Positions 7,833 to 61,700 of a DNA stretch of 64,000 bases are shown here, one piece after another. The first letter of the stretch is position 1; each line of letters starts with the position of its first letter. The DNA is from Protoeuglena noctilucae. Taxonomy: Eukaryota. The notes under the pieces were generated by a model. It had not been told where the DNA came from. It ran no database searches and worked only from the letters and a program-made list of their open reading frames with translations. The position numbers and the translations under genes are program-made. The stretch is from NCBI GenBank assembly GCA_958009085.1, contig OY253684.1, forward strand, positions 62,001 to 126,000. The letters are read 5' to 3'.

Positions 7833-10800
7833 TCACTGCCCCCTGCCCGTCTTGCTGAGGATGACCTGTGCCTCCTCGGATTGCATGAATGCCATGAAGG
7901 CATCCAGGAGGGCCATCTTGCGCTCTTCAGGGGAGGGGTCCCTGGGGGGAGCGAGATGGGGGGGATAAGGGTGAGGTGATGTGGGGGGGGCGATAGGGGT
8001 GGGGGAAGCAAAGCGGCGTGATCGGCATTCAGTCAACGAACTACACAAAGCCTGCAAACCCACACACAGCGCCTGCCCCCAACACCCGACCGCGCCTGAG
8101 GTCCTCCCTTCACCACCCCCACCTCCTCTCCCCCACCTGGTCCCACCCATCATCACGCCGCAGTGCTTCCTCATCCTCATCCTCTCCCCCGCACCCCCCA
8201 CCTGATCTTGCCCCCGTTGGCCGCCGGCGCCGCCTTGCCGCTGGTGCCGATGCAAGTAAACATTGCCTTGTCCGTGAAGTCGAACAGGTCATAGGCGGAG
8301 CCCACGTCGTCCACCGTGCACGTCTCGTACATGGTCACCAGGTCCCTGGGGTTGGGATTATGAGAGAGAGACAGCGTGAGACACATGGTAAGAGAGAGGG
8401 TCGTGTCTCCTACATGGTCACCCCAACATGCGCTCTCCCCAACACCCTACCCCACCCCACTTAACACCCCCTTCCCCTTCACCTGAGGCACTGGGCGCTC
8501 TCATCAACACCCGCTTCACTCCATCCATACATGCCTTCCCTCCCTTCTCAACCCACCTGAGGCACTGGGCGCTCTTCAGCGGCACCGCGTCCGACTGCAG
8601 GTGTGTCATCAGCGACAGCCAGTACCCGTTATCCTTCAAGTCACTCTCGTGTCTTGAAATCAACGTCCTCTTGGCCCGAGCCAGCTCCCGTGGGCTGATG
8701 GGGGAGGTCTTGAAGCCCCGCAGCACGCGAAGGCACGCCTGCAGGGCCGCATCAATCTTGGCGGGCTCGGAGGTGACTGGGGCGGAGTGAGGGGGAGGGG
8801 ATGTGGTAATCAATGGTGATCAGTGGTGAGTGAAGGGTTGTGTTAATTGCAGATGGATCTTCACCCACCCACTTACTTAATACCCACCCCGTCTGCAGCC
8901 GGTCAAACACTGCACATGCCACATGCTATAGACATACTGTAACTATTGCAACTGCACTATTGATATACAACCATTCCCATGCCTCTCACCCGACACGGAG
9001 AACCACCCCGTCTGCAGCCGGTCGAACACGGTGAGGTCGAACGACACATCGTACGTCAGACCCAGGCTGTCACGCACGGTAGTGAACAGCCGCGCGTTGA
9101 TGACCTCGCTCAGCAGCTGCAGGGTGGTGGAGCGGAAAAGGGGGTGGCCGCGGCGCAGGCGGTCGGCCTCCCTGCGCTGATCGGGGGTCATGCCCTCGTA
9201 GGCGTGTTCGGGGGGTGGGGGCGCCACGTCGCCCTTCACGATGCCCACCATGCGGGAGGGGTCCGAGAGGAGATCCGAGGGCTGGGGGGGAGATAAGGGG
9301 GGGGGGGGGGGTGAGTGGTGGGGTGAGGGGAGTGCGATTGGTGTGACAAATAGCGCAGCACAGCGCACGGTGGCATGCGCATCTGCATTGCGCAAGCACA
9401 TCGCCCCATGCGTTCATGCTACCTGCGCCTGTGGCAGAGACACATACACAGTACAGCCTACGTCAAGCACATCCACCCCATCGCCATCGCCCCTCGCCAG
9501 CCACGCCATCGCATGTCAGGCCACATCACACCCCCACCACCCACCACCCCTCCCTCACCAGCTTCCACCGGGGCGGCGCGGGCCCAGCGATGAACGCACA
9601 CGCCCTCTCATCGGAGTCCATCTGATGCCATCGCTGGTGAGCATTGGTGGGCTCGGGTGCGTGGAGCGTGAGGGGGGCCGTGTGGACCCAGCGGGGGAGG
9701 TCGCTGCTGGTGTCGATGGTGCCCAGGTAACGCAGGGCGCAGGCCTGGGGGGGGGAAGGGAGGGGGGTGATGGGGTGTTGTTGTTGTTGTGGGGGCGGCA
9801 GTGGGGGTGGCAGTAGCAGTGAGTGTGGGTGCACACCCACCCACCCACACCCAACCTCAACCCACTCACCTCCACCCTCTCCGGCTCCACGTCCCCCACC
9901 ACCGACACCTCGATGTTGTTGGACTGAAGGATGCGCGACACCACGGACTTGAGCTTGTCTGCACGGATTGAAAGTATCGCGGTGTGAGTGAGATTGTCTG
10001 CCATGGTGGAAATGCATTTGATTCATCTCTCATCCACTCTTCGCTCCCCACATACAATCGTCACCCAGGTCGAGCGCCTTGACGTCCTCACCACGTCACC
10101 ATGTTATACATCCATATAATCATCAAAATTGTCACTAATAACCCATCCTCACCCAGGTCCAGCGCCTCGATGTCCTCGGGCGTGGGGTCCCGGAACCGCC
10201 GGTCGTCTTTGATCATCGCCCCCATGATGCGGTTGGCAGTGGCCCTCTCCAGCGACTTGTCGGTGCTCCGGAAGTGGCTGGCGAACATCTGCTTGGCGCG
10301 GTCGAACGCCACGGGGTCCCACCGGGGGTGGCGCAGGAACTGGTGGAGCAGCTCAAAGGCACCCTCCATGCCGCCGTTCTGTGATAAGAGGGGGGGGAGT
10401 GGTTTGGGGGAATGGATTGTTTACTGAATGGATTGGGAGTGTGTGTGTGTGCGAACCACAGGTCCATGATGACGAGCTCTGTCTCATTTACTTCACTCCA
10501 CCTCTCACATCTATTATACTCTCTCATCTACTCGATACCCCCCTCACCTCCACCGCGAACCGCAGGTCCATGATGACGAACTCCTCGTCGCTGTCGATCA
10601 TGCAGTTGATGAGCTTGCTAATGCAGAAAAGCTCCATCTGCTCCCGCTCCCACGACCCCACCGTCCCGGACTCAGACACCGCGCGCACCCCCACGGCCAC
10701 AGAGCCGTACCCCGCGCCGGGCTCGGTCGGGTCCTCCACACTGCGACCGCCGCCCGCCACCAGCCGAAGCACGGCGCCCTTGGGCTCGTTATCCTGGGTT

Positions 10801-31500: not shown

Positions 31501-32637
31501 GAGGGTCTCTCTGATCCAGCCTTACCAAAGAACCATGGTAATAGTAATCAGTCGCTGCTCCACACAAGCAGAGTCGTCTCTGTCGCGGTGCTCCAGGACC
31601 GCGCGAGTGGATGCGCTTTCACGATTGCTGTGCAGCCCGCGGTGGGAGAGGCGCTGTTTCAGCTCCTGGTCGACAACGCCAGCGCCGCCCTCTCCGCGCT
31701 GCCGTGGCTGTGCGTGGCGTGGGGGGCGGCCCGCGTCATGTCACACGCTCAGTTCACGCCCATGTTACACACGGGCAAAGCCGACCTCTCCGAAGCCCCG
31801 TCATCTGGTGGCTCCCTTGCCACTGCTTCCGACCATGACAGCGAGGCCTCTCATGTCATGCCAGGGCCAAGCAACCTAAGGGCGTCCGGCACAGCTGCAC
31901 GCTTGGGGTGGGCGGCACTGTCGGTGCTTGCGTGCGTGGCCGTGGATCCAGCGGTGGGCATGGCCGTCGCTGTGGGGCGGCACGCGTGGGTGCTGCGGAG
32001 GGTAGCTTGGATGGGCAGAAGTGGGGTCGAAAGGGGTGGCCAGAGCAGCGGGGGAGAGAAGGGGGAGGGAGGGGCACCTGCCTGGGCAATGGACCGCATG
32101 GTGGCAGCCCTGCAGGGACCCGCACTGGCATGGGAGGTGTACCAGTTGGCCCGGGCCGCACTCCCGGCCGTGTCCTTTGGGCGCTTTGCCGCCAACTGCG
32201 TCGCGTCGGGGGGCCCAGGGAGGTCTGCGCTGCTACGAGAGGTGAGTGGCATGCTATGCACGATGGCGGGGAGTGGAGATGGTCTGTGAAGGGTGGCGGG
32301 GAGTGGAGATGGCCTGTGAAGGGTGGGGGGGCTTGGAGATGGCCTGTGAAGGGTGACGGAAAGTCCAGATGGCCTGTGAAGGGTGGGGGGGAGTGAAGAT
32401 GGCCTGTGAAGGAGCATCTGTAGTGGCTGAGCGTATTCTATGTGCCCACTTGCGCAGGTGCTGTGGGTGCTGTTCCCGAGTAATAGGGCAGCGGAGGGTG
32501 GTGCGCTGTGGGCGTGGCTGGGCTACCGGGGGGCAAATGCCGTCTGGGGATGCGTTGTGAGTGCGGTGGCCCTGGGCATGGCCGTGAGGCCAGGGGATGG
32601 GCACCGTGCCGAGAAAACGAAGCGCAAGAGGCTTTAG
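28579..32637 (+). CDS. PGAP1: GPI inositol-deacylase (PGAP1/BST1-like alpha/beta hydrolase with C-terminal membrane helices)
   Basis: N-terminal hydrophobic anchor; VLYVPGNAGSFKQARSLG, VDLGEELSAFD, LVGQSMGGVVAR, VTLATPHAAPP, GDRDVQVRP, HDAVWANQ. Hydrophobic C-terminus ending KRKRL* (KxKxx ER-retrieval-like). The middle exons are less certain. Confidence 0.82.
32262..32412 (+). repeat. Intronic 30-bp tandem repeat, about 5 copies (core GATGGCCTGTGAAGGGTG)
   Basis: AGATGG(C/T)CTGTGAAGG recurs at a 30-bp period inside the last PGAP1 intron (32242-32457). Confidence 0.93.
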
Positions 32638-33914: not shown

Positions 33915-36900
33915 ATGCCCTCCCGCGCAGCTCCCGTGCCCCGCGCGCGGAACGTGAATGGGGCGGAGGACATGGAGGACGAGGGTCCGGTGGAGCGGAG
34001 CCTCAGCGAGGAGGAGGCGCGCGCCCAGCTGGCCAGGATCCGCAGCATGTGGTGTGTCCCCGCGCCGCCCGCCGGCGCCCGCCCGCGCCCCACGAAACGC
34101 ACCTCGATGCCTTTCTGTTTGCGATCTGCGTCTTGGAGGCCGTGCAGGCGGCCCGACCCAAGCGCGGGGCCGCGTCGCACCCTACCCTCCGCGTCCTTGC
34201 GGGGGCCCGTGCGCCCGGCGGGAGCATCTCGAATCGGCCGCGCGCGACTTTCGCAATCTTCACGTATTATTGTAACTGAATTTGCCCTCTCCTGCCCGCA
34301 GGGAATTCGCTTCCGCCATGTTCTTCATGCATTCCTTCGCTGCGCACATATTCAACGACGGGACCTCCGCGGAGCCTCTGGAGGTGTCGGCCGAGGCTCT
34401 CGAGGACGCTTTGGTCCGGTCGAGCGGCGACGGGGGCGTCTTGCAGTCCATCCACGTGGCCCTGCTGTCGGGCGTGATGTGGAAGCGGTGAGGTCCCCTG
34501 GCCTCCGCATTTCTGGCCGTGTCGCGTCACCGCCCGCATGCCGGCTCACTCTGCCATCGCGCGCACCGCCACTCGCACCGCACCGCCGCCCGCACGCCCT
34601 CGCTGCACCGCCCCAGCGCTCATCTCACCGTCTCCCGCACCGCACCGCGCCACGCCCGTCGCCGCCTGCAGGGATGCGGTGAAGGAAGACGCCTGGCAGC
34701 TGCAGGTGGAGCGCAAGGTCCACGAGCACTGGGCCCTGACGTACCCCGGCGTGCCCTACCCCTGGCGCCCCCACCGCAACGACCCTTTGCGTGCCGCCAC
34801 GTCTTACGCCCGCATGCCCGCGGCTGACCGCGTCCGCGCCCTCAAACTCCTCTGCGATCTGCGCCTGGACCAGGAGGACATCCAGAACCGCATGAGCAAG
34901 GCGGCAGGGACGCTGGCACGGCCGCCCAAGAAGCGCAAGAAACAAAAGCAGGGGACGGTGGCGGTGGATGACGGGGAGGAGACGCTGGAGAGGTTCCAGG
35001 AACAGACGCCTTTTTGTAAAGATGACGAGGGGGGCACGTACTGGTGAGGGTCAGGGGGTTGGGTGGGGGCATTGGTGGTAACACCGATGCGCTCTTACGA
35101 TGCTTGCATCGTACTAGATGACGGTTGGGGGTGTGCACGTGCCAAGTAAGATACCCTTACCCTAACGAGTGTTTCACAAGTGCCATCCTCACCAATCTGC
35201 TTCACTGCAGGCTGCACGACATGAGCGACACGTTCGGGGTGCGGTTGTACCGAGAGGGGCCGGCCCCAGTGGACCCAGCGGCAGTGGCGGCGGGGGAGGA
35301 GTGGGAGCGGATGCGGGCGGCGGCGGTGGCGCGGATGGCGCAGGCGGCGCGGCAGCCGCGGGGGCAAGCGCGGGAGGAGCGGGGGACTGGGGCTGTTTCT
35401 GGCATTGCCGGGGGTGGCAGGGGGCGGGAGGCGGCGCACGGGGTGGGGCTTTAGGGTGCCGTTGCGCAGATCCTGGCGCCGGACGGGACGGTGGTGACGA
35501 TGGGGCAGGACGTGGCGCTTCGATACCTGGCGGCTTATCGGGAAATGTGCACGGCACGTGGGATGGGCCCGGAGGCGGCGACGGTGGCGGCGACGCAGCT
35601 ACTGCAGCGCAACGCGGTGGCGATCGCCGCGCAGTCGCGGGCGCTGGCGGCGGCGCAGGCGCAGATGCGGGCGGGGGCGCAGATAGGAGCGGCGGCGGGG
35701 GCGGCGGGGGTGACACACGCACAAGCACAAGCCCAGGCGCAGGCGCACATGCAGATGCAGGTCATGCAAATGCAGGCCATGCAGGTCATGCAAATGGTGC
35801 AGATGCAGCAAATGCAACTACTGCAAATGCAGCAGGCGGGTGCGGCTGCCATGAACGGGCATGCGCAGGGCGCTAAGCCTGGGGTGGGGGTGGTGGCGAA
35901 GGCGCCTGCAGGGAGTGAGAATGGTGCTGCTGCGAACCACGTTCCCAGTACAGTTGCACTGGCAACTGCCGGGGATGCGGGGGTAGCATCGGTGGCGCAG
36001 CAGGCGGGGGCGAATGGGTCTGATGCAGCAAGAGCGACTGGGGGTGGGTATGGGAGTGGGGAAGCGGTCAAGGGAGAGGGGAGTGGGGTAATAGGGGTGG
36101 CGGGGGTGGGCAAGGGCGGTGGGGAGGGTCATGCCGCGGTGGGGGTGGGGGGGGGTGGGAAAGACAAGGGGGGGCTGTTAAGAGAGAAAATGGAAGCAGG
36201 GGCGTTGGAGGCGAGCGAAGGGGGTGCGGCACGCGATGGGAGCGGGGGTGGCGAGGGTGGAGTGGGAAGGGAGGCAGGGGGCGGTGCGAACGAGGGCGGG
36301 GGTGGGGTTGAGGGTGGTGGTGGTGCAACGGGGGGCGAGGGTAGGGGTGTTGGTGTGGCTGAGGGTGCGGATGGGGTTGTGGGGTCAACACCGGGTGCGG
36401 GTATGACTGAGGGTGCAACAGGGGGTGCGGGTGCGGGTGGTGGTGCGGGTGCAGGTGTGGGGAGGGGTGTTGGTGCGGGTGCGGGTGCGGATGGGGTTGC
36501 AGGGTCAACAGCGGGTGCGAGTGGTGGTGCGGGTGCGGATTTGAGTGTGGGTGCGGATGGTGGTGCGGCAGCGGGAGTGGGTGTGGGTGCGGGTGTGGGG
36601 TCAACAGCGGGTGCGGGTGCAGATGGGGTTGCAACTGCGGGTGCGGGTGTGGTCCCTCCCCCTGCCCCTCGTCCCCTGGGTCCGCGTCACGAGGTGGATG
36701 TGCCAGAGGCGGTGTTTTCTCGCATCCACGCCATGCACCAGCCGTGCGGGGAGGTGAGGGGGTCGAATGGGCATGAAATGGTGCATGCGTGCTCCAGCAG
36801 TCATAATGTTTAATCACAACCCTTTGTTTTGTAATTAACATACACTTTTGTTATCTCCGTTGCTCACGAATGTCGCACCCGGTCACCAACCCACCACCCT

Positions 36901-37320
36901 CTCCACAAGCAACCCCTGCTAATGGCTCATTCCTCCCCTGTCCCGCAGTGGGCGATGCTGGCTTCTGGCACCGGGGAGCTGCGTCAGTGGGCGGAGCGCA
37001 TGGCGGGGGCCAAGGCTGCGTGGGAGAGGGAAGCGGGGGCGCGGCTGTTAAGCGAGGTGCTTCCGGGATTGGAGGAAAGGGAAAGAGAGGAGGAGAGGCG
37101 CGTTCGCAAGCAGATGCGGATGCAAAGCAACCTGGGGCTGGGGGGTGCGTACTGGGCGGAGAGTAAGGGGCGGCGGGTGGGGCGTGTGGATTACGCTTTT
37201 CAGGGATTTGAAAATCAGATACAGGACGCGATTCGGCGCGCGGAGGGGTCGGGGGAGGAGGGAGGGGAGGGGCGGGGAGGGGGGGAGGGGGAGGGGGAGG
37301 GAGATGGTGGGTGGGAGTGA
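33915..37320 (+). CDS. DDT-domain/WHIM chromatin-remodelling cofactor (Arabidopsis DDR4-like) with a large low-complexity insertion
   Basis: IRSMW-EFASAMFFMHSF..EALEDALV..IHVALL (DDT); SYARMPAADRVRALKLLCDLRLDQEDIQ (WHIM1); PFCKDDEGGTYW and GVRLYRE; WAMLASGTGELRQW; RVDYAFQGFENQIQDAI. Start is ATG 33915 or 33972. An in-frame TAG at 35452 needs an intron I could not resolve. Confidence 0.8.
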
Positions 37321-37685
37321 GTGAGAGCAAAGTGTGCTGGTGTCATTATGTATATATCTTGATGCCAAATCATGGCATGCGTGCCTCGTGTCATGATGTG
37401 GGACGTGGCTGCTGCGTTTGAAATTGTCTCGTAACAATGACGCGTGAATTGGCGTTTTGCCAGTGCTGATGGGCAGACTGGTTAAAGCTGCCACCACGCT
37501 GGCACAATCGCTATGACGCAAGCAGCCACTTGTCACCGTCTCTCTTTCGTTCATCGTATACCCTTTTCATCTGCTCCCTTTCAAGCAACCCCTCACTCGC
37601 CGTGCGAACCCTCGCCTTGCCACCCCACCCCCTCCCATCACAGCGCAGTACCATCTACCGCTCCAAACCACCCCTCCCCATCACA

Positions 37686-40380
37686 TCACGGCGCTCGCTT
37701 GTGGATGAGGGCTGCCCCGCTCTCCTGGTACTCGACGCGCGACATCCACATCTGCTGGAATGTCCCAAGGCTGGACAGAATGGACCCGCCAATCCAATTG
37801 GCGAAGCGGCGCTGGGGGCGGGGGGGGGGAGGTGGGGGTGAGGTGAAGGGAGGTGGGGGGGTGGGTGACGATGGATGACAGGACAGTCATTTGGTAAATC
37901 AGTAGGTGATTATCACAAGGCACTCGGTCACTCAATCGCACTTACTGCCACCTCACCGCTACCTCCACCCCCAACCCCAACACCACCCCTACTGCCACCC
38001 CCACTGCCACCCTTAACACCAACCCCGCCGCTGCCCTCACTGCCACCCTCCCAGCACCCCATCACCCCACCCCATCACCCCCACCCACCTCCACCGCCTC
38101 TCACCTCCGGCCCAGCCGTGGGCATCACCACCCGGACCCTCATCGTTCCCTGGTGTGTCGAGATCGGCGCCCTCTCCGTGACTGCCATCTCCAATCGATC
38201 TCTAAGCCCAGTGATAGACGAGCACCCTCCCACCAGCACAATGTTGCCGTACAGGTCCTTGCTGTGATCGACGTCCACCTTGTGGATGGCAGACTTCACT
38301 GCGAGGTAGGGGAGGGGAGTAAGTGAGGTGTATGTAGTAATACTATGATTGATATCGATACCATCCCATCCCATCTGTCATTTCATCTAACACCCAACAT
38401 CTTATCCCATCTTTCATCCCATCTCATGTCATCCCATCCCATCTCATCTCATCCCCTCTCTCATCTCCCCTCACCGCACTCGGGCAGCCCCTGGCACGCC
38501 TCCCCCCCCCAGAATTTGACCTCTTGGCCCCCGGGGATCTCTTTGGCCCAGTCGGGGTTGAGGAGAACCTGCATGATGAGGGGAGGGATGCGTATTAGCA
38601 TGTACTGTCACTGCCACCCCCACTACCACCCCCACTACCACCCTCACTACCACCCCCACCTCTACCACCCTCACTACCACCCCACCCACCCCTCACCTCC
38701 GGCACCATCACCCTCTCCCCCTGCAGCTTCACTTCCTGCCCATCTGGCAGCTCGTACGAGGCCGCGGGCACCGACAGCGCGTCCTCCGCCCTCAGGATGG
38801 CCAGCTCGCTCACGCGAGAGCACAGCACCTCCCTCACATCCGTGACCACTTGCGAGGCTTGGAAGCGGCGGAAGGAGGGGGTAAGGGCGTCGGTGGACAG
38901 CTCCTGAATGGCAGAGAGGGGGAGTGAGTGTGGTAAGAGTTGGGGTGAGTGGGGGTGGGGTGGAGGGGTGGGAGCGGGGAAGATGGTGACGGGACAGGTG
39001 AGGCAGTAAGTGGTAGGAAAGGCTCATAACACTCATCACCCTCTCCCTCTTCCCCCCCCTCGCCTGCACCGCGAACCCCCCGCTCCCGTCCGGCACCCTC
39101 TTGACCTCGTGCCTGGACCGCACTTGCATGCCCTTGGCGGATATGGCGCCCCCCACCAGGTCCGTCAGCAGCTGGCCGGCCAGGGGGACGCGGGTCACGG
39201 AGCCCTTCAGCAGGAAGCCGTCCAGCACCGCTGCGGTGGTTGGGGACAAGGGAAGTCATATGATAGGTATTGTGCATTGTGATTGGCGGGTAATGACTGG
39301 TGGAGCCTTTGAGGAGGAAGCCGTCCAGCACCGCTGCGGTGGGAAGTGGCAGTGCAGGAGAGGTGTTGGTAATGGTATTGATCATTGCACATGTAACCAC
39401 TCCCTCTCCACTCACCCGACAGGCACGTCTGCCCGTGCATTACAACCACAACCACCACCACCATCACCATCACCACCACTCACCCGACAGGCACGTCTGC
39501 CCGTGCCCCACGTCCACCACCAGCGCTGTCGACCGTGCGGACGAGAAGGTCGCCATCACGGCGTCCTTCCCCAGAAACACCGCGGGCGCGTGGTACTTCT
39601 CAAACATCAACTGGACCAGGCGCTCGCGTGCCTCGTCTGCGCATGGTACCTGATATATAAGGAATCAGTCGAATGCCCATAGCATTGCCAATGCGTAGTG
39701 CTACTGTGCGTACTATGAACATCCGTCTCTCTATGCCCCACCCGCGATCAGCCACACAGCCACGCCCCGGCATCGCGAGTCCCTCACCCGTATTGCAGCT
39801 GGGCTCGCACAGCAGCAGGGGCCTGTCCTTGGGGTCGACATCCAGGGCTTGGTAGAAGAGATGGTCGTATACGGCCTCCACGCCGTCCCAATCCGAGTAC
39901 AAACCCGTCGCGGGGTCAAAAATCTGAGAAACTTCCATGCCGGGACGCGGATAGTTGACGGCGATGTTGCCGACGTACAGATCCCGCGTGCCCTTGCGCA
40001 GGGGAGCCCCCGCCTTGCGTGGCACGCCGTCCATCGCCATGTCCCCGTCGCTCTCGCGCACGCCAAACGCCTGAGAGGAACAGGTATAATACTAACAACC
40101 GATAGGAGGAACACGGGGCGTCGCATCGGCGCGGAGAGCGGCGGCGCGCGGCGAAAAGCACACGCAAGTTTGGGAGGCGGGCCCGGAGGGGCGGGAGCTC
40201 GTGCGCGGAGCGTTCCGCGGCCCCGATGCGTTGCTGCAACTATATACTGTCCGCACGCGCGAGCTCGCGGCCCACCGACGGGAAGACGGACTTGGGCTGG
40301 TCCTCCCCCGCGAAGCCCGCCTTCACGGTGTGGGAGCCCAGGTCCACCACGATCCCGTTGATCTCATCGCCCCCAAACAT
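37686..40380 (-). CDS. ARP4: Actin-related protein 4
   Basis: [121 protein letters not shown] ending 37686. Confidence 0.95.
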
Positions 40381-40966
40381 GCTCACGGGCCGGAACTACC
40401 CGGCGAAAGAGACGGGCGGGCGCGCCCGGCAGCGGGGGGAAAAGGGGGCACGGGGCCAGCCAGCGCTTGATGTTTTCCGAATCTCTTGAAGCTCCTCGCT
40501 GTCGGATGGCGAGCGCTGCTTCAGTCGCACACAAGAATTGTCCACGCGAACTCCGGGGCGCGCAGGCTCGGCCTTGCATGCCGCCAGTCCAGCGTGAGAA
40601 GACGGTGTCACGGCCCTGAGCGCACCTGGCGAGCTGCGGGCACTCCGGCAGCAAGTTGTCCACAACGGAATCCGACGGTGCCTGGTGCGGCAGGTGCACG
40701 CCGTGCCGGAAGCGTTCAGGAGGCATTCTTCGCGCCAAGCAGCGCGAGCTCGCCGATTTGCGGCCTTTTCGGACGGCGTCCGCTGCACTGAGAGCCTGGC
40801 TAAGAATGTCCGCGACTCCGCGGGCGCTTCTCAAGCCTGGCCAGCGCGGCGCCGCGCTCGGGCGACTGCAGGTGCGGGCGCCACAAGGCCTCTCCCCCGC
40901 CCAGCGCCTCGCCTGCCGCGCGGGGCGGCGGCGGCGCAAGCGCGCTGTGTAACTGGATAGCTTCGG

Positions 40967-43913
40967 ATGCCATTGCGCATCGACCGGGGCCCGGTCGGAG
41001 TCGGGCGCATCGAGCGCGGCTGGCGCCCCAGCGTGCACGCTTTATCCACCACGACTCCGCCGCGCGCGGGCTATCACGCCGCAACTTGCCGCGGATCTCC
41101 TGTACCGCTGAAACCAAAACGCTTCGCTGCAACCACGCGTCCCCCGCGCCACCGGGGAGTGTGCGCGGACGGGCTTTCGACCGCTAGCTCCTTTCTCCGC
41201 GCTCGCAGGTCCTCCGCACGCCGCCTTCGGTCCTCCGCCGGCAGGCCTTCCCTTGTATCGGTCTGTCCCGCGCTCCCCCCCTGTGTGCTCCCCGCGGAGA
41301 GCGATGGTCGTCGAAGAGGCGGGCAGTGGCCGCGGAGCAGGTGGGCGAAACGCCTCTCTTATGCAACGCGGGCTCATGGCGGCATGCGATATCAGTAATC
41401 GAACGTGTTTTCGATAACCTAAGCCGCTTGCATCGACACACGCCTGCGTAGAGAGGACTTGCGCCCATCCGTTGCGCTCCCGCCCTCGCTCCCTGCGCAC
41501 AGGAGGAGGTTCAGACCACTCCCGGCCAGGCCCCGCGCCAGTACCCCTTCCCCGAGATCGAGCGCAAGTGGCAGAAATACTGGGCGGACCATCAGACCTT
41601 CCGCACGCCTGACATTAAGGACCTCGACACTACCAAGCCTAAATTCTATGCTTTGGACATGTTCCCGTACCCCTCGGGTGCAGGGCTGCACGTGGGGCAC
41701 CCGGAGGGGTACACGGCCACGGGTGAGGGGTAGTGCAGAGTGTGTGTGCGGGGGGTTTGACTGAGGGGCGGTGAAGGGTGGTGAGGGGTGAGGAGCAGTG
41801 CAGTGCAAGGGAATCTCAACCGTGTGCATACCACCCCACTGCCCCTCTCCCACACCTGGTGCCTCGCAACCCACCCCTCTACCGCACCTTGCACCCCCAC
41901 CCCACCCCACAACCCTCAGCCACACGCAACGCCTCCCCACCCACCCGACATCCCTCTGCCACACCCAACGTCTCCCCACCACCCCCTCCTTCTGCAGACA
42001 TCATGGCCCGGTACAAGCGCATGCGCGGCTTCAACGTGCTCCACCCGATGGGCTGGGACGCCTTCGGTCTTCCCGCGGAGCAGTACGCATTGCAGACCGG
42101 CACGCACCCTGCTGTCACGACTGATCGTAATATTCGGCGATTTCGCGAGCAGCTCCAGTCTCTGGGCTTTTCCTATGATTGGGAGCGGGAGGTGTCGACC
42201 ACCGATCCCAACTACTACAAGTGGACCCAGTGGATCTTCCTGCAGCTGCTAAACAAGGGACTGGCGTACCAGGCGGAGGTGCCAGTGAACTGGTGCCCCG
42301 CGCTGGGCACGGTTCTGGCGAACGAGGAGGTGATCGACGGCAAGTCGGAGCGGGGGGGTCACCCCGTGGTGCGCATGCCGATGCGGCAGTGGATGCTGAA
42401 GATCACGGCGTATGCCGACCGCCTGCTGTCGGATTTGGACGGTCTGGACTGGGCGGACAGTATCAAGGACATGCAGCGGAACTGGATTGGGAGGTCGGAG
42501 GGGGCCGAGGTGGTGTTCGAAATCGAGGGGGGCGAGGGGGGGCAGGCGGTGACGGTCTTCACCACCAGGCCAGACACGCTCATGGGGGCCACGTACGTGG
42601 GTGAGACGAGAACAGATTGTGCAAAAGGGGGGTGTTGTGGTATATCTATGGTGATGTCTTGTAGCGCTGTTGGTGCTGGTGACACTGCTGGATACAGCCA
42701 GCGTGGGCTGGGGTATGCTTTGGGATAGTCGCTAGTTGGTTTTGGTAAGGAATTGCTGGTCCTGGGGCACCCATCCATCACCACAATCGCCCTCTGTTAA
42801 CCGCAGTGCTCGCCCCCGAGCACCCGCTGGTATCCGCCATCACCAAGCCCGCCCAGCGCGCGGCCGTCGATGCGTACGTGGCAGCCGCATCACGCAAGTC
42901 CGATTTGGAGAGGACAGAACTAACTAAAGACAAGACCGGGGTGTTCACGGGAGCCACGGCGACGCACCCGGTGACGGGAGAGCGCGTGCCGGTGTGGGTG
43001 GCGGACTATGTGCTGGGGGGGTACGGGTCGGGGGCAGTGATGGCGGTGCCGGCGCATGACGAGCGGGACTGGGAGTTCGCCAGGGCATTCGAACTGCCCG
43101 TCAAGCAGGCGAGGGGGTGGGGGGACGCTGTGTGCAGTAAACATGTAACAGTGCATGGCGCGGGGGCGTGTGGTGCTAAGTAGTACAAAGTACATGGCGG
43201 GCAAGGTGTCACTACACTACAATCCACCATGTCAACGACAGATGTAGTTATTGATAACAACTCATATTGGCCTTGTCTTCGCAGGTGGTGCACCCGTCGG
43301 ACGGCGGAGACGCGGATCTCCCCTTCACGCAGCCAGGCGTGGCGGTGGGGTCGAGTGTCGATGGTCTGTCCATCGATGGGATGACCACGGAGGAGGCCAA
43401 GAGGGCAGTGGTGGCGTGGCTGGAGGGGAAGGGGTGAGGGACGGGGTGACAAAGACACGGCAGTATTCGTATATCTATGAACCACATCCATTCCATGACT
43501 CACGCCCGTGTCACGCTCGACCTACAGCCACTCCACAACTCACCCCTTCCGCTCTGCACCCTTCCTGTCAGCTGGACGCACCCCATCACCCCCAGCCCCT
43601 ACTCCATAGCCTCACCCACCGCCCACCCTCATCGCTCTCTCGCTTGTTCACTCGCAGCAAGGGCGCCGGCAAGGTCAACTACAAGCTCCGCGACTGGCTG
43701 TTCGCCCGCCAGCGTTACTGGGGGGAACCCTTCCCCGTGGTTTACCCCGAGGGCAGCGAAACGCCAGTGCCCCTGCCTGAGTCGGCGCTGCCAGTGACGC
43801 TGCCAGAAACTGAGGAGATCAAGCCATCGGGGAACGGCAAGGGTCCCTTGGCGAATATCGAGGAGTGGGTGCGGACGGTGGATCCCGGGACGGGGCGGCC
43901 GGCTGTGAGGGAC

Positions 43914-43949
<36 letters not shown>

Positions 43950-46233
43950 GTGAGTGGGGGAGGGAGTGAGGGTGTGAGAGAGTGACACAGAGAGTGAGTG
44001 AGTGACAGAGATGCGAGACACCAACACCATGCCGCAGTGGGCGGGGTCGTGCTGGGTGAGTGGGCTGATGACTGGTGCAGCTAACACTATGCTTGTAACA
44101 GCGCAGTGCTCCCTCCTCCGCTACACATCTCCCCTCCCATCCATCACTCTCAGCGCCACCCCTCTTCTCCCATCCCAGTACTACCTCCGCTACATCTCCC
44201 CGTCTTTCTCCCCCGCCCTCGTCGACCCAGCTGCTGAGCGCTACTGGATGCCCGTGGACCTCTACGTGGGGGGAGCTGAGCACGCCGTGCTGCACCTCCT
44301 CTACGCCCGATTCTGGCACAAGTTCCTTTTCGATATTGGGGCCGTGTCGACGCCGGAGCCGTTCCAAAGGCTCGTGTCGCAGGGGATGATCCTGGGGGAG
44401 GTGGAGTATGCGGGGGCGAAGACGGAGGGGGGGGAGTGGGTGTCAGGTGAGGGGGGTGGGTGTATGGGTGGTGGGGTGGTGTGGGAGTGGGTGTCGGGTG
44501 AGGGGGGGTGGTGGGGTGTGGGTAGGGGAGTGGTGGGTGGTGAGTGAGGGTTTTGTTGAGGAGTGGAATGGAGTGGTTGCTCGGGTGGCAGTGATACCGA
44601 TGTTGCGATGTGCGGGTAATGTGCATTGGTGAGAACAATGTAGCATACAACCACCAGTCCCCCCCCACCCTCCCCTTCCCGCAGCCGACGACCCCCGCGC
44701 ATCTCTCTCCACCTCTACTTGGGTGAAGCTGGATCCCCAAGACGTGGAACGAAGCGGGGACGCTTACGTGCTACGCTCCGACCCATCGGTGCGCGTCACA
44801 GCGCGTGCCCACAAGATGTCCAAATCCCGCGGCAACGTGATCAATCCCGACGACGTGGTGTCCGAGTTCGGTGCCGACTCGCTGCGGCTGTATGAGATGT
44901 TCATGGGGCCGCTGCGGGACACGAAGGTGTGGAGTACGCGGGGGGTGGAGGGCGTGCATCGATTCCTGGGGAGGGCGTGGAGACTCTTGGAGGGGGGGGT
45001 GGGGGAGGAGGAGCCGAGCAAGGAGCAGATGAGGTGAGGGGGGGGGGAGGTGGGGGTGGGGGGGTGCATGGGTGGGGGCAAATGAAGTGAAGGGGTGGAG
45101 TTGGGGAGGTGCGTGGATGAGAGCGGATGGGGTGAGAGGATGGTGGGGCTGGAGGATGTAGGCGGCTGTCGGGAGGTCACTGGTGACCGTCGCGGTGACT
45201 ATCAATAGCAGCAAATGTCGCAGTCAATCAGTAATTGACTCCCTTAGTAACTCTCACACACAGCGACTGTCCTAGTGACTGACCATCGCAGTGACAGACT
45301 GATAGCCTCACACGCATGTCACCTCCCCACGCAGGGACCTGCACGCGTGCATCAAGAAGGTGACGGAGGAGACGGAGGAGATGCGATTCAACACGGCGAT
45401 ATCCGCCATGATGGAGTTCGTGAATGCCGCCACCAAATGGACCAACCGGCCACGAATGGCACTCGAGCCGTTCGTGCTGCTGCTCAGGCGAGAGATGTTG
45501 GGGTGGGGAGGGGGGAGGGGGGTTGCAAGTAGCGAGGGGTGTTGTTGTGGTAGCGGTGGTGGTGTTGTGGTAACGGGGAACGAGGCTGCAGTTGGCAGTT
45601 GTAGTTATGTGAGGGAACAGAGCAGTTGACCATTCCGTCATGGATACGCACACGCCTCGTTCCGACAACATCAACACACTGGCATGTTTGCCCCCCCGCA
45701 GTCCCTACGCCCCCCACGTGGCGGAGGAGCTCTGGGAGCGGCTGGGACACCAACAGTCGCTGGCTTATGAGCCCTGGCCCGCGTTCGACCCCTCGCTGCT
45801 GCAGCAGGACACAGTCACGCTGGCCGTGCAAGTGGGCGGGAAGGTGAGGGGTGTCAGGGGTGGCTAGCGAGAAAAGAAAAAAGGTGAGGGCAAGAGTGGA
45901 TGAGGTGAGCGGGTTATGAGGGCAAGAGTGGGTGACGAGGTGAGCGGGGTATGAGGGTGAAAGTGGGTGATGAGGTGGTGTTGGGTCTGCTCACGATTGG
46001 GTCAGCTGCGGCAAGCGGCGGTGCTTCTACGACCATGTGTTTGCTGACGGGGCCCGCGTGCCGTCACTTGCCCGCAGATGAGGGGCACGGTGGAGCTGGC
46101 GGTGGGGGCGGGGGAGGCGGAGGCGATGGAGGCGGCGCTCGCGGGGCCGGCTGCCAAGTGGGTGGAGGGCAAGGCGGTGAAGAAAGTCATTTACGTGCCG
46201 GGGAAGATCCTCAACATCATCGTGGGCAAGTGA
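40967..46233 (+). CDS. Leucine--tRNA ligase, organellar (bacterial-type, chloroplast/mitochondrial); exact start uncertain
   Basis: [34 protein letters not shown] (HIGH), [117 protein letters not shown] transit-peptide-like exon lies at 41209-41340; ATG 40967 is a guess. Confidence 0.96.
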
Positions 46234-46497
46234 CGCGTCGCGGGAAAGCCATATGTAGATTCGTTGAACGTAATTATCGCCACCAAGGACTCGAGAACAG
46301 GTCATCGTTGTCCCGCGTATCGTGCGGGCCGAGGTGCTTGGCCAACGTGCCGCGCGCGTGGCGGGATCGACGGGCGCTGTGATGCAAGCGTCTTCGATGT
46401 GTCACGTGATGTGTCACGCAATTGCTGGGCCAGGCAGCGTCGCACCTGGGCGGCGAGCGATCCGTCCGGCTGCGGCGCCCCGAGGCAGCCGAGCAGG

Positions 46498-47605
46498 ATG
46501 GGGCGAGGGAGGACAGGTGAGCGGAGAGCGCGCGCGTCGCGGGTGGCGTGGCATTGCGACGGTACAAATGTATCGTTCGGGCGCAGTCGGGCCGCGCCTC
46601 GCGGCTGGCCGGCGATCGCGGGTCCCGTCGATGTCTGCCTGTGCAGGCGAGCGTGGGGCGGGGGGGGCCGGCGATGAGGCGGGGGCGCGGGATGGTGACA
46701 GAGACCGCGAGAAGCGCTGGGTTATCCCGGATGAGGAGCTGGAGGTGGGCACGTCGCTGGGCGGGCAGGTGTTCCGGGGCCGATGGAAAGGTCGCGCCGG
46801 TGCTGTGGCGATCAAGCGGCTGGACGCGGGCATGAGCGGCGTGGAGGGGGATGCGCTAGAGCGTGGGACGGAGGAGTTGCGGCGGATGGCGGCGGCATGC
46901 GAGGGCTGCAAGCACCTGTGCCCGTGAGTGCGCGCTGCAGCACGACTGGCTGTGGGCCGGGCATGGTTACCAGCGTGTGCGTTGGCTTGGCGGCGCATCG
47001 GGGAGCTGTTTATGAGAGGAACAATAGCCTTTTGCGGAGGGTGCTGGGTGTGATGATCCGTGACGCACAGCTGCACGTGGTCATGCCGCTGTACGAGAGG
47101 GGGTCGCTGGCGCAGCGCATCGCGGGGCATGGGGCGGGGCTGGAAGCGGCGGAAGTGGTGGAGGTGGCGGTGCAGGTGCTGGAGGGGCTGGCGGAGCTGC
47201 ACGAGCGGGGGGTGGTGCACAGGGGCGTGAAGCCGGGGAACGTGCTTTCCAAAGGCGTGGGCTGCAAGCTGGTCGTGCAGGGGGGGCGCATTACAAATGC
47301 CCAGGATGGGGCGAGATGCAATGCTGGGTACGTCGAGCTCTGCGGCGTGACCGTCGCAGAGTGCAGGAGCCATGGGGTGGTTTGTTTTAGCAAGGACAGC
47401 AGGGTGGCGATGCGGGGGGGGGCGCATCACGGGGTGCAGGAAAGGTCACGGCATGATTTGCGTGTGTCAGGGGAAAGCGACGGTGCGGGACGCGGAGATC
47501 ACCGACTGCGGTCGGCACGGCCTGCGTTGCGAGAGCGGCGCCACTCTGCAGCACAGCTGGTGCACCGTGACGGGGTGCGGGTGGGGCGCGTATTTTAATT
47601 GCTGA
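46498..47605 (+). pseudogene. Probable pseudogene: truncated TKL-like protein kinase fused to right-handed beta-helix repeats
   Basis: WVIPDEELEVG..VFRGRWKG..VAIKRL..VVMPLYERGSL..QVLEGLAELHERGVVHRGVKPGNVL. HRD is changed to HRG and there is no DFG or C-lobe. The sequence runs straight into repeats GGRITNA / GVTVAECRSHGV / AEITDCGRHGL. An extra G in the G9 run 47414-47422 shifts the frame, and the second acceptor is GAG rather than YAG. Confidence 0.7.
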
Positions 47606-47859
47606 GGGGCGGGAGTGGGGGTAGCGTGCCGCTCAACGCAAATATCCTGGCCTGCCTGTAACCATGGGTTTCGAATTTCAACGTTAGCGGCAGGCCATAG
47701 TACGTATGTCAATGCACACGCTGTGGCGGTACAGTTAATGCTACTATGCATGGGTCAAGACGCCATGGCATGGCTGGCGGCGCCGATTGCACGGTGAATG
47801 GTGACACATCAACTGCCTGTCATGTCCGGTAACACCATTTGATGATCCCATTTTCCGTC

Positions 47860-50800
47860 TCAGCCCCCCACCGCCGCCCGCACCACCGCTGCAGCGTCCC
47901 TCAGCCCCGCGTGCCAGGGCAGGGCATGGGCTGACTGGGCCTGCGAGACAAGACAGATGAGTGAAGTTGCTTTATCGCATAACTGTTGCTATCATCTGCT
48001 GTCATCTGTGCATCACGCCCACCGCCATCACCAACCCCAGCACTGCCACTACCAGCCATGCCACCCGCATCACCCACCCACACCCACCCATCCCCATCCT
48101 CACCAGCGCCACCGCCGCCGCCCCCATCGCCCCCTCTCCCAGCTCCCCCACCCCCGCCGCCCCCGCCAATGCCAGCAGATGCCTCACATCCCCATTCAAA
48201 TCATCCCCACGCGCCGCCCCAGGCTCAAACGCAGCGATTGTTGCACCACTGCTCACGTCCACCCACGCCGCCCCCGCCCCCGGTGTCCCGCAAACACGTG
48301 GGGTGGTCATGGCAGCCGCCACACCGGCCCCGCCACCCCCCCGCAGCGCAGGGCTCAGTTTCGCGACCCTCCCGCCCACTGCCGCCGCCAGCACCCGCGA
48401 TCGCTCCGACCAGGGGGCGATGTGCACGGCCGCTCCCGCATGCACCCTCGCGCGCACTGCAGCTGCGCTCGTCACAGCATCCCCCGCCCCCGCCGCTCTC
48501 GCCGCCGCCGCGTGGCTCGCCGCGAGGGTTGCGTGGCTCCGCACCCGCACCCGCATGGCTGCATCCCCCCCCGCTTTGGCTGCAAACGCCTCCGCACACT
48601 CCACCACCATCGCATGCCTGTCCTCCGCCTCTCGCAGACTCTCTGGCTGCCCTGCCGCCCCCGCTTGTGCCAAAAACGCAGCTTTTGCATCGTTAGGCAA
48701 CGCCGCAGCTGCCACCCGCAACGCACAGGCAGCGAGGAGGCAGTCAAAGCACCGCGCCACACCCGCACTCCACTGCGCATGGGCTGACGCTGAATGGGCG
48801 TCGATAGCAGGGGTGCCATGGGTAGCAGTGGTGGTGGAAGATCCATGATGGGTGTAAATGTTTGTGCTTGTATTTGCAGTGCTGTCCGTGTCTGGCTGTC
48901 GATAGGATGCGTCGATGGTGACTGCGATGGCATCGTCGATGCGCGATGCGGCGCAGAGGGCGGTGACGAGGGCAGAAGCCAGATGGGCGGAGTCGGGTTG
49001 GCCTGGGGGGAACAGGGGAATGGGGGGAGAGTGAGGGGGTGAATGAGTAGGTGAGGGTTGGGTGGGCAGAGTGGGTGGACAGCAGAGTGACACGCCACAC
49101 ACCAATTACACCCGCCCATCACATACACACACCATTTAGATATACACATGAACACACGCCTCCCGCCCCACCCCCCACCCCTCACCTCTCCCCTCCGCCG
49201 CCCCCACCGCCACCCGCAGCATCCCCGCCGCCCCTGCCGCATCGCCCTTGGCCGCCACCACGCACGCCGCGCCCGCCATGGCCCAGGAATCCCCCGCCTT
49301 CTGCATTTCCAGATTCTCATACAGCATCCCCGCCTCCTCCAGCTTGCCCATTCTGGCGAGCACGCGTGCCAGACTGACGCGCACCGCGGCTGACACCGCG
49401 TCAGGGTCTGACGTGGGGCCGCGGTCGGACGGGACCTGAGTTGGGGAAGGGAGTTTGAATTTGAATGTGAATTTGCATGCCAGAAGAGTGGGAGAGGTGG
49501 GGGGAGGATGACAGTGAGCATCAGTAGTAGCATCAGTAGCATCACTAGACTAGGGACAGTTGCAACGGTAGCCATGCCACCCCTTACAACCACCCGCTTT
49601 CACACCCGTCACCATCACCACCACCCCGCCCCACCCATCCCTCCACCGTGACCGTCACCCCCCCCTGGTCGCCCCCACCACCACCACCACCCCTCACCCC
49701 TCACTTTCAAAATAACCACTATCCAACTCCCTTACACCCCCCCCCTCCCCATCCCTCACCGTGACCGTCACCCCCCCCCGGGTCGCCCCCACCATCGCGT
49801 GTGCTTTGGACAGACTGACCAGCGCCCCCTCCATCAGCCCCCTCGCTTCCCTCGCCAGTCCCAGCGCGTGGTGAGCCGCTGCGTTCCAAGGCTCAAGCTC
49901 TGCCCATCTTGATGCGGTGGGGAGGAGGAGGGGGTGGGTGGCGTGGCCAAGGGAGAGGGCGCACGTGGCGGCGTAGTGGAGGGCCTGGGGGGGTGGGAGG
50001 AATTGATAATGTGATTTTACAATGCAGTGTGAATATACACTATTATAGAGCGCTGGTGTATGAGAGCGAGAGTGCGCAGGTGCTGGCGTAGTGGAGGGCC
50101 TGGGGGGGTGGGAGGGATTGATAGTGTAATTATATAATGTGAATGTACATTTACTATATAGCATGGGTGTATGAGAGGGGGTGGGTGGCATGGCCAAGTG
50201 ATAGTGATAGTGATAGTGATAGTGATAGTGATAGTGATAGTGATAGTGATAATGATAGAAATAGTAAATGTAAAAGTAATAGTAATAGTAATAGTAAAAG
50301 GAATAGTAATAGTTAAAGTAATAGTAATAGTAATAGTAATAGTAATAGTAATAGTAATAGTAATAGTAATAGTAATAGTAATAGTTATAGTAATAGTAAT
50401 AGTAATAGTAATAGTAATAGTAATAGCAATAGTAATACAGTGCTGCACTCGCAACCGTTCCCGCCACCCTCACCACTCTCACCCATACACACCCCCCACC
50501 CACCCATTCCACTCACCTCCGTCCCGCACACCATACCCAGCGCGTGCCGGGCGAACTCAAACGCCCCCCTCACATCCCCCGCCCCCGCCGCCATCCCCGC
50601 CATCGCCTCCCACACCCCCGCATAATCGGGATCCTGAGCCCGCGCCTGCTGCCAGCATCTTTCTGCCAGATTAGTCTGTTGCATATTCGCGTATAATCGG
50701 CCCAACGCCGTCCACGCCCCCGCATTGCCAGGATCCAATTGCAGTGCTCTGGACAGCGCATATTCCCTTTCAGGTGGGGTGGTAAGAACGCTGCTCAGGG

Positions 50801-58747: not shown

Positions 58748-61700
58748 TCAATCGAGCTGGTCCATCCATGCATCATCCTCATCCCCCTCATCTTCACTCC
58801 CCCCATCACCATCCCCACCAACCCCACCACCCATGCCGCCCCCACTCCCCAACGCAAAGCCCATCGACCCAGCAAGCGACCCCGCGGGCCCGGGCATTCC
58901 CATCTGCGCCTCATAGCTCGCCAACAGACCACGCAGTGCCCCCACATCCACATCCACCGGCCCCTCACCACCACCGCTATTGGTGACACCACTACCACCA
59001 CCACCACTCTTAACTCCCTTAGCCCCCTTCACGTCGCTTTTCCTCAATTCTGTCTCCATCGCTTCATCATAGGCCTCTCGAAAAGCAATGTCCAGATCTG
59101 TTGACCCCACACCCACGCCGCCCTGGTTACCCACCACCCCCGCACGCCCCCGCCTCATCCCTGCCACCCCCACTTCGCCCTCGCTCTCACTGTCCCCATC
59201 CTCTGATGAACCATCGCTCCCACTTATCCCACCCTCACTGCCGCCCTCACTGCTACCCTCGCTGCCATCCCCACCGCTACCCACCGACGCCCCCACCTCC
59301 TCCCCCAGCGCCGCCGCCAACTCTCGCAGAAATCCGTCCGCATCCAAACCCACGGGTCCCACCCCCCCAGGCACCTCGGCCCCTTCTGGCCCTGAATCAG
59401 CTGCCAGAAAACGACCCATGCCCTCCAGGAGGGCGCCCAGGTCCAAAGACGAGGACTGCGGGTGAGGATATATCTATATATAGATATATATTGATACTAT
59501 GTATAATATGTATAATGTGTTGTGAGTTATGTATGTGTGTCTGTGGTTATAAATCTCGACGAAATATAACAATGGCAAACCACGTTATGATTTGAATACC
59601 CCAACACGCTGCCCACCCCTCACCTCCGCCCCCTCCCCGCCCCTCTCTCCCCCCCCACCCCTCCCCCCCGCCGACTCCGCCATCTCTTTTTGTCTCATTC
59701 CCATTTCCGCATCCAACAGCGCACCCCCCTCCTCCATCCACTCCTCCCCATCCACCGACCCCTCTTCCATCGCTGCATCGTTGGAATACTCCATTGGCGT
59801 GTCATTTGAATTATCCATGGATGCTTTCTCGAATGACGCGATGATCTCCTCGATGCGGCGGCCGGGGGCAGAGGCGCGCTCTTGCATGGCCCGGTGAGCC
59901 TGCGGGGAAAGTGAGGGTGGAGGTGGTGTTGATAAGGGTGGCAGTTAAGGTTGGGGTGGGGGTGGCAGTGGGGGTGGTGTTAAGGGTGGTGTTAAGGGTG
60001 GTGTTAAGGGTGGCAGTGGGGGTGGGGGTGAGTGTGTAAATAAGGGTGGCAGTGGGGGTGGCAGTTGGGGTGGTGTTGAGGGTGGCAGTGGGGGTGGGTG
60101 TAGGGGTGGCAGTGAGAGCAGCATTGCAAGAGGTTGACTAAGTGCCACTGCTTAACACCCCACCCAATTATCGCCCCATCTCCACCCCACCCCCATTCAC
60201 CTCTGTGCTCTCATATGCCTCCCTCGCCCTCCTCTCCCTCTCCCGGTACTCCACCGACCCCTCCACCAGTCCCAGGTAATACCCCGCCCTCGTCAGCGAC
60301 GCTTGAAACCGCCCCCACCCACCACTGCTCCCACCGCCACTCATACCAACCCCCCTCTTTTCCCCACCCCCACCGCCACCCCCACTGCCACCTCCACTGC
60401 CACCCCCACGGTCACCCCCACTCCCCTCCATTTTCTGACTTCTCTGGCACAGCATCTCCAGCCCCATGGTCAATTTGAATCCCAACTCTACCGCGCGACG
60501 ATCGGGGTCGCCCAATGCTGGCATGGGCACGCGTGCCTGTTTGGGCGGGTGGAGTATCTGCTGGGATAGTTGCGCGTAGAGGAATCTCGTGAAATGGATG
60601 ACGGCGGGGACGGGGGCGGTGGCGGTGTAGGGGAAGTGGGGGAGGGACGAGGAGGCGCGGAGCTCTTGGGGGTCTCTGGGGGTGGGGTGGGGAAGGGGGT
60701 GAGGAGATGAGATGAGATGAGATGAGGTTAGATGAGATGAAATGAAATGATATATGAGGCGAAATGAGCAAGTGCTAGGTTTGAATAATGCTTGAGTGTC
60801 AATGCTGGGGTCTTTGGTTGGGGTGGAGTGAGCGTTGTTGCATGGGTGGGCATGGGACGCTGGGTGTCATGGCATCTTGCCATTAATAACCATTCGATTC
60901 TCACATATATTAATTCGTTTCTAATAGCAAGTATCCTCACCTCATGCACACTGCTTCGACGGCAGGCGCGACGAGCTGTGGGTCCTGGCGGAGGATGCGG
61001 GCCACCAAAGGGGGGACGAGGCAGCGGGCGCGGTGGAGGGAATGGGAGGCGATCTGTGATGAGGGAAGGAGTGGGGTTGGTGGGTGAGTGAGAGTGGGTG
61101 GCGATGTAAGGTAAGTGAGAGTGGGTGAGGGGATAGTGGGGCGATGTGAGAGGAGGGGACGAGGCAGCAGGTGCGGTGGAGGGACTGGGAGGCGATCTGA
61201 GGGGAGAGAGAGGGGGGTGGGTGGGTAAAGTGTGGGTGGGTGGGTGAGAGAGAGACAATGAGATGAGAGAAGAGGGGTGAGGGGTGAGGGGAGCGTGGCC
61301 GAGGGTGGCGGTGAGGGCGGGAGTGGCAGAGAGACCAAACTAGCCAAGTGCGTCATATTGATGCTCACAATGCGCATCTATTCCAATCCGTACCTCACCC
61401 GCAGCATCCACTCACAACCACTCCACCACTCCACCCTCACCCTGGGCACCTCCCCCATGCATTCATTGAGTGTTCATTGTTCACTGATACCACCACTCCG
61501 CCCCTCACCCGTGGCACCTCCCCCAGTCTCCTCTGCAGCATTGCCTGCGCCTCGTCGGGCAGTCGCGTGAGCACAGATGCCGACTGCACTGCGCCCAGGC
61601 ACTGGGACAGGCTGGGGCGGGGGGGGAGCTGCGGGACAGGGTGGGGAGGGAGAGGGTGAGAGTTAGTTAGTGAGTGTGGACTGCTGCAAAGAAAAAAGCT

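Follow-up and report, generated by a model that had tools for sequence, protein, structure and literature searches.

Intron 3 of an actin-family gene in Protoeuglena noctilucae contains a direct copy of each of its own exon borders, and together the two copies frame a complete GT-AG intron inside the outer one. The gene lies on the minus strand of a 64,000-nucleotide (nt) stretch (contig OY253684.1, positions 62,001 to 126,000), which is called the window below and is numbered from its first letter. The structure is probably (at roughly 0.6) an ordinary spliceosomal intron enlarged by direct copies of its borders, as a by-product of genome-wide local copying and insertion, the decoy splice sites being unconstrained and either ignored or removed first. 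In the direction of transcription, the region is arranged as follows:

39484..39636, minus strand: exon 3, with the RNA joint 39636->39788 in three metatranscriptome runs (X9, X10, X12) and a Pfam Actin match over profile positions 107-156
39231..39483, minus strand: outer (real) intron 3, 253 nt, GTGAGT...CAG, with the donor G at 39483 and the acceptor AG at 39232-39231
39476..39506, minus strand: donor source block, 23 nt of exon end plus the donor GTGAGTGG (repeat finder)
39439..39475, minus strand: spacer 1, 37 nt, G/T-rich of TGGTGR type, seen on the plus strand as an ACC run of period 3
39408..39438, minus strand: donor-side copy (exon end plus donor), 31 nt, with the decoy donor at 39415
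39334..39415, minus strand: inner GT-AG intron, 82 nt, with the donor at 39415 and the acceptor AG at 39335-39334
39302..39342, minus strand: acceptor-side copy, CCACCGCAG plus 32 nt of exon 4 start, with three synonymous mismatches and a decoy acceptor
39240..39301, minus strand: spacer 2, 62 nt, AT-rich and then C-rich
39199..39239, minus strand: acceptor source block, the real CCACCGCAG plus exon 4 start (repeat finder)
39064..39230, minus strand: exon 4, covered by RNA pieces, with the joint 38902->39063; Pfam Actin match from position 156

The blocks therefore follow one another in the order A, A', B', B. The final 23 nt of exon 3 are the template of the donor-side copy, and the repeat finder aligns the two donor blocks (39476-39506 and 39408-39438) over 31 nt at 100% identity and a spacing of 68, and the two acceptor blocks (39199-39239 and 39302-39342) over 41 nt at 93% and a spacing of 103. 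Between the copies lie 65 nt of unique intron. The donor-side copy encodes HGQTCLS, and the three mismatches of the acceptor-side copy are all synonymous. The inner 82-nt unit has the G-rich start, AT-rich middle and C-rich end of the gene's other introns and a set of signals: the donor GTGAGT, a branch-like motif (TTAC or CTGCAC), a C-rich stretch and the acceptor CAG. Being a complete intron wholly within an outer one, 39415-39334 has the anatomy of a nested intron. Spacer 2 has a branch-point-like TGAC 25 nt 5' of the real acceptor. Removal of the inner unit leaves an outer intron of 171 nt whose rebuilt junction, CTGTCGG/CGGTGCT (the slash marks the join), has no GT or AG at the join. An earlier note on this DNA had described the same outer sites, 31-nt and 41-nt copies and inner GT-AG intron, and reading the minus strand and running the repeat finder both reproduce its coordinates and layout. 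Folding does not single out the intron: z is 0.33, and 136 of 200 shuffled sequences fold equally well or better, so that where the best fold pairs the two spacers with each other, composition alone accounts for it.

Exons joined at GT-AG borders (one GC-AG) give an open frame of 442 residues. Pfam Actin matches six of the seven exon frames tested, and the profile runs from 107-156 to 156-213 across the outer junction; the product is an actin-related protein. Its designation as ARP4 in the earlier note is plausible and unproven: searched exon by exon rather than as a whole spliced protein, exon 3 has human ACTL6A (BAF53A) as its best match, and exons 2 and 7 have plain actin. A metagenome scan with exon 3 returned 597 pattern matches and a single confirmed locus, an AT-rich intronless relative with 51% identity, in which the protein continues straight across the position of intron 3. 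A protein search with exon 2 found no match among longer proteins, so the species' own protein is absent in long form from that collection. The name ARP4 is kept below for convenience.

Five of the seven introns of the gene have joints in X9, X10 and X12, among the joints listed. For intron 3, the evidence comes from the arithmetic of the RNA records. The depth of the bin 38945-39393 (8.47 in X9, 2.33 in X10, 2.21 in X12) corresponds exactly to 169 nt of exon 4 alone at the depth of the single contig in each run, and hence no RNA contig covers 39232-39393. The X9 piece of exon 4 ends at 39231. Furthermore, exon 4 occupies letters 680-848 of a 1564-letter X9 contig; 679 letters precede it and exons 1-3 need 245 + 282 + 153 = 680, so that 68 or 103 extra letters cannot fit. 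From the record arithmetic and the bin depths we infer that, in the mature mRNA, splicing has used the two outer sites. Both mixed pairings would shift the frame: 103 nt would be added if the outer donor were paired with the inner acceptor, and 68 nt, with a stop at codon 55 when exons 3 and 4 are read, if the inner donor were paired with the outer acceptor. These figures bear out the logic that a correct mRNA requires either choice of the outer sites or removal of the inner intron followed by the outer one, as had been proposed. The RNA contigs fit one-step and two-step removal alike.

The copied blocks are also present in DNA from run X4, which belongs to a study other than that of the possible source sample. 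One X4 contig covers 37992-39435 with no differing letter. Besides exon 4 and spacer 2 it includes the whole acceptor-side copy and inner intron, and the donor-side copy apart from 3 of its 31 nt; both copies on which the earlier note rested are thus independently found, the donor-side one over 28 nt. The X4 contigs break at 39436-39486, which is masked as repeat, as is expected where an exact 31-nt repeat lies, and the 37-nt spacer 1 is without independent cover. Two X4 joints (39417->48076 and 39186->49673) have sides of just 20-21 letters and were treated as repeat noise. Chance was assessed with 20 third-order Markov simulations of the window, counting exact direct repeats of at least 16 nt, not of low complexity, at a spacing of 25-300 nt. 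The window holds 23 such repeats and all 20 simulations together hold none; at a looser threshold the count is 66 against 0-3 in 10 simulations. A chance origin of the copies is excluded. Exact short-range inverted repeats number one, against the 23 direct ones.

The arrangement in ARP4 is the neatest of many of its kind. Seventeen exon-border copy pairs were tabulated in the window, 12 on the donor side and 5 on the acceptor side in gene orientation, and a sixth, gapped acceptor-side copy occurs in an intron of the LeuRS gene. In these pairs one end of an exon, 12-42 nt long, recurs 33-143 nt away within the adjoining intron. Outside 36700-50150, the exon borders were placed from reading frames and Pfam matches, not from RNA. 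Four introns are nested on both sides: ARP4 intron 3 and those of LeuRS, an M16-like peptidase and an SGT1-family gene. The earlier note had presented the layout as a special device of one gene; its anatomy stands, and its singularity does not, since ARP4 has one of at least 17 border pairs and one of four two-sided introns. The further introns and repeats concerned are:

43950..44178, plus strand: two-sided intron of LeuRS, with a 48-nt donor copy at 44017-44064 (1 mismatch) and, at 44115-44134, a copy of exon 2 (20 nt, gapped)
8346..8556, minus strand: intron of the M16-like peptidase ('SPP'), with a donor copy and an exon 2 copy and no inner acceptor
61054..61508, minus strand: intron of the SGT1-family gene, 455 nt, with a donor copy at 61434-61457 and an acceptor copy at 61155-61199; Pfam SGT1 matches on the adjacent exons
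1692-1857, plus strand: intron with a 37-nt minisatellite of 3.1 copies, the first unit being exon end plus donor, …GTGTGGAACCAG/GTGGG
62055-62141, minus strand: 58-nt tandem repeat doubling the branch-point motif (CTAAC / CTGAC), the pyrimidine tract, the TTAG acceptor and 18 nt of an SGT1-family exon

In LeuRS, three RNA runs contain the joint 43948->44178, so that the upstream donor is used and its identical copy 106 nt downstream is skipped, and the protein motif at this junction (WAGSCW/YYLRY) is found in 111 of 120 homologues. The inner intron is 51 nt long and has a CTAAC motif and an AG acceptor. The nearest named relatives of the LeuRS exon are those of chlorophyte green algae, at 81-86% identity. 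The next donor of the same gene (CAG/GTGAGGGGGG, 44432-44456, plus strand) recurs 51 nt downstream at 44483-44507; the shift is a multiple of three, and use of the downstream copy would add 17 codons in frame. An RNA loose end at 44682 fits either the original or the copy of this second donor.

The peptidase intron carries a donor copy of 22 nt (8480-8501, identical to 8554-8575) and an 18-nt copy of exon 2 (8405-8422 against 8322-8339, 1 mismatch) that is not preceded by AG. This intron, which had been cited as a second two-sided example ('SPP', 8556-8346), therefore has copies on both sides but no complete inner intron. The SGT1-family intron frames a complete inner intron of 244 nt, and its donor copy differs from the source by synonymous changes only (CCA/CCC, CGG/AGG). 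An inner AG acceptor is thus present in three of the four two-sided introns (ARP4, LeuRS and the SGT1 gene). One-sided decoys occur in at least nine other introns, seven with donor copies only and two with acceptor copies only. The 58-nt repeat at 62055-62141 places an intact decoy acceptor upstream of the real one.

The copies decay as free DNA would. Over 410 sites, exon and copy differ by 13 synonymous and 14 non-synonymous changes, and a coding constraint on the copies is rejected overall. The differences fit free mutation of the intron copy combined with silent-only drift of the exon; in an earlier subset, six of eight differences fall at third positions (P = 0.11 under this model). The decoy site itself has been lost in some older copies, such as the one at 10065-10089, where GTGAGG has become GTGACG. 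One donor-side pair on the minus strand (61771-61804 and 61887-61920) shows exon G and copy A at four of four differences, three of them at CG, a pattern that decay of methylated CpG in the intron copy would fit.

In four of nine copy pairs (the LeuRS donor, the peptidase donor, the peptidase exon 2 and the peptidase pair at 8884) the flanks outside the copied block are unrelated (both p >= 0.3), and in the other five, which include both ARP4 copies, one flank scores at p 0.003-0.04; as a control, the simple 115-nt tandem repeat at 49953-50139 gives strong scores for either flank. Plain tandem duplication is rejected on the unrelated flanks of the four pairs. The spacers bear no significant likeness to the inner intron in ARP4, LeuRS and the peptidase, and the SGT1 gene shows an extension of 11 nt (p = 0.008). 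A repeated mobile element is likewise rejected, the unique parts of three copy-bearing introns having no second copy in the window. The copies are sharply bounded blocks with unrelated DNA between them and, except at 1692-1857 and 62055-62141, are not simple tandem repeats.

These features suggest a route by which intron 3 may have grown. A donor-side copy would have been inserted 68 nt downstream of its original and an acceptor-side copy 103 nt upstream of its own. The underlying process would make pieces with sharp edges, 17-48 nt long, and insert them at a distance of 30-145 nt, invariably as direct copies; only those landing in introns would survive. Once both kinds of copy lie in one intron, the nested order arises automatically. 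The near absence of inverted repeats favours in-register copying on the same strand. On the intron side, the copies in ARP4, LeuRS and SGT1 end at GTGAG-type or C-rich CAG motifs that are common in these introns, suggesting that synthesis was primed there; at a guess, the copies could arise by break-repair synthesis primed on G-rich or C-rich motifs resembling splice sites, followed by end joining. The decoys would then be bypassed, with the most upstream donor winning as in LeuRS and human F7, or removed first as a harmless inner intron, and mixed pairings would give frameshifted RNA that is subsequently lost.

Several observations weigh against this reading. The joint of intron 3 is not among the 15 of 27 joints listed, so the outer join rests on arithmetic, and RNA contigs cannot show rare, short-lived or intermediate forms. 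The three mismatches of the ARP4 acceptor copy are all synonymous, which is striking taken alone (P ~0.01) and not so in the pooled set (P = 0.11). The spacers have no detectable source in the window, unlike the remains of a plain tandem duplication. Furthermore, donor-side and acceptor-side copies co-occur in introns above independent expectation. At a uniform threshold, the 11 introns with donor copies and the 5 with acceptor copies have three in common, for which P ranges from 0.005 to 0.085 as the total is taken as 120 or 45 introns (the skew count gives at least 43 in the window); if the gapped LeuRS copy is included, four of six acceptor-copy introns are shared. Among the nine RNA-supported introns, the same two carry donor and acceptor copies (P = 0.028). 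Such coupling may reflect one joint event, or selection. Possible causes are introns prone to breaks, insertion of a diverged allele together with its intron in one event, and selection for an inner acceptor that disarms the decoy donor.

An alternative reading is a working Russian-doll intron, in which the inner 82 nt would regularly be removed first and the decoys deleted with them, the outer sites then completing the splicing; the acceptor copy would be kept, or have been favoured, as a harmless partner that compensates for the decoy donor. The inner unit has the full set of signals, and its removal leaves a 171-nt outer intron whose new join lacks GT and AG. Inner-first removal would also explain why the decoy acceptor, intact and placed before the real one, is unseen in mRNA; two-sided layouts are enriched, and the inner AG is present in three of the four. 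Against this, no RNA with the inner junction was found, though the contigs could not have revealed one. The nine RNA-supported introns span 128-293 nt, and the inner introns fall below that range at 82 nt in ARP4 and 51 nt in LeuRS, a mild argument against inner-first splicing in these two genes. An inner acceptor is missing from the peptidase intron, at least nine other introns tolerate decoys on one side alone, and the copies decay like free DNA. A dedicated Russian-doll function is unlikely. A broader version, in which border copying throughout the lineage grows introns from their edges and gives birth to inner introns, two-sided layouts being enriched because the inner acceptor disarms the decoy donor and splicing proceeding inner-first, seems doubtful to the same degree.

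A single insertion is slightly less probable again. Here, a break in an older intron of 116 nt would have been mended with about 146 nt of a diverged allele or paralogue that carried its own 82-nt intron and exon flanks. Spacer 1 joined to spacer 2 resembles a normal intron of this genome, as does the inner unit, and no spacer DNA need arise from nothing. It would account for the coupling of both sides, for the sharp edges and for the finding that ARP4 and the donor copy of the SGT1 gene show synonymous differences only. However, other copies have non-synonymous and nonsense differences (14 of 27 differences), the inner unit of the peptidase lacks an acceptor, and no second haplotype or paralogue appeared: X4 has no other letters or indels, and the metagenome scan gave only the distant relative. 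An assembly artefact, with two haplotypes or strains stitched in series, is very improbable, for although the window has a 200-N scaffold gap (11768-11967, inside the M16-like peptidase gene region), the stretch is present in marine metagenome runs of which one is a possible source, and the spacer between the donor copies is independently uncovered, an unscaffolded contig from another study runs from exon 4 to the start of the donor copy with zero differences, and a serial join of two alleles predicts A, B', A', B rather than A, A', B', B.

Local copying with enlargement of an existing intron has its closest parallel in human F7. Intron 7 of that gene contains a 37-bp variable number tandem repeat in which the donor is reiterated; experiments showed that only the most upstream site is used and that the others are functional, and border minisatellites that reiterate the donor also occur in the 6-16, CBS and lamin B2 genes (PMC1557585). 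As in F7, an exon end with an identical 5' splice site is repeated in the ARP4 intron (31 nt, exact), and the window intron 1692-1857 has a genuine array with a 37-nt unit. Three RNA runs show use of the most upstream donor in LeuRS, and the same probably holds for ARP4, in line with F7. Unlike in F7, ARP4 has one copy beyond an unrelated spacer instead of a head-to-tail array, the acceptor side is also copied so that a whole inner intron results, and many genes of one genome are affected.

Nested splicing (intrasplicing and the nested introns of dystrophin) likewise involves a smaller GT-AG unit enclosed by an outer intron and available for removal before it. In the known cases of nested or multi-step splicing the introns are very long, and RNA intermediates support the process. 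As a description of ARP4, recursive splicing fails, because recursive sites rebuild a splice site and the ARP4 join CTGTCGG/CGGTGCT has none. Fungal stwintrons share the intron-within-intron form. Their inner intron breaks up one of the outer signals (donor, branch point or acceptor) and must therefore be spliced out before the outer one; in ARP4 the outer GTGAGT and CAG are intact and at least 45 and 62 nt away, and the term was rejected.

Models of intron gain by AGGT tandem duplication and by insertion at staggered breaks have been reviewed (PMC3443670). They resemble the present case in that local duplication multiplies splice signals and direct repeats stand on both sides of an insert, and differ in that here an existing intron is enlarged and none is newly made; the repeats of 17-48 nt also far exceed the short ones given there for Daphnia (PMC3443670). 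Neither model predicts the observed order A, A', B', B. Under AGGT tandem duplication the downstream exon would recur at the beginning of the intron and the upstream exon at its end, in the order A, B', A', B, and the junction here is CGG/CGG rather than AG/GT; that model was rejected. Introners, the transposon-derived introns of marine algae, would be expected as many near-identical copies with target duplications of fixed length. They share with the present case a marine alga with many introns that bear marks of recent insertion; here, the unique parts of three copy-bearing introns have no second copy in the 64 kb, and the 'target duplications' vary from 17 to 48 nt. A genome with many genes bearing sharply bounded copies of both borders, so that complete introns arise within others, was not found in word searches, which were confined to open papers. 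Reed and Maniatis have reportedly published on duplicated splice sites, and Gao and Lynch are said to have done so on internal duplications.

Other features of the window concern its introns and repeats more generally. Intron build is fixed, with a G-rich, C-poor start (often with minisatellites), an AT-rich middle and a C-rich, G-poor end, as at 37812-38104 and 38299-38474. In plus-strand coordinates introns read G-rich and then C-rich on either gene strand, and a skew scan gives 43 such units. Two of the nine RNA-supported introns begin with GC (39063-38904, minus strand, GCGAGG, and 45488-45701, plus strand, GCGAGA), a high share of GC-AG. A run of about 40 copies of (AGTAAT) at 50197-50437, AT-rich in a window of 65% GC, adjoins the 115-nt duplication at 49953-50139. 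Minisatellites lie at 32264-32412 (30 nt, 5 copies) and 36339-36650 (6/48/120 nt, based on GGGTGC). A gene for a hybrid-cluster (prismane) protein, a family best known from anaerobic microbes, occupies 2882-5550 on the minus strand as three long exon frames, of which the largest matches Pfam PF03063 at E = 3.5e-94.

Identical competing splice sites are a classic tool for the study of site choice by the spliceosome. The window presents such competition as it occurs naturally in a wild marine alga: both sides of introns are involved, essential genes including LeuRS are affected, and the 64 kb contain at least four nested cases. Most likely, the structure is a neutral by-product of a copying habit of the lineage. 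If the copies are only neutral debris, they are a warning for gene predictors, each copy being a perfect false splice site. If the pattern is genome-wide, it would be the footprint of intron lengthening, and possibly of intron multiplication, in this lineage, and would supply natural constructs for donor choice by order, for acceptor choice and for the removal of an intron inside an intron.

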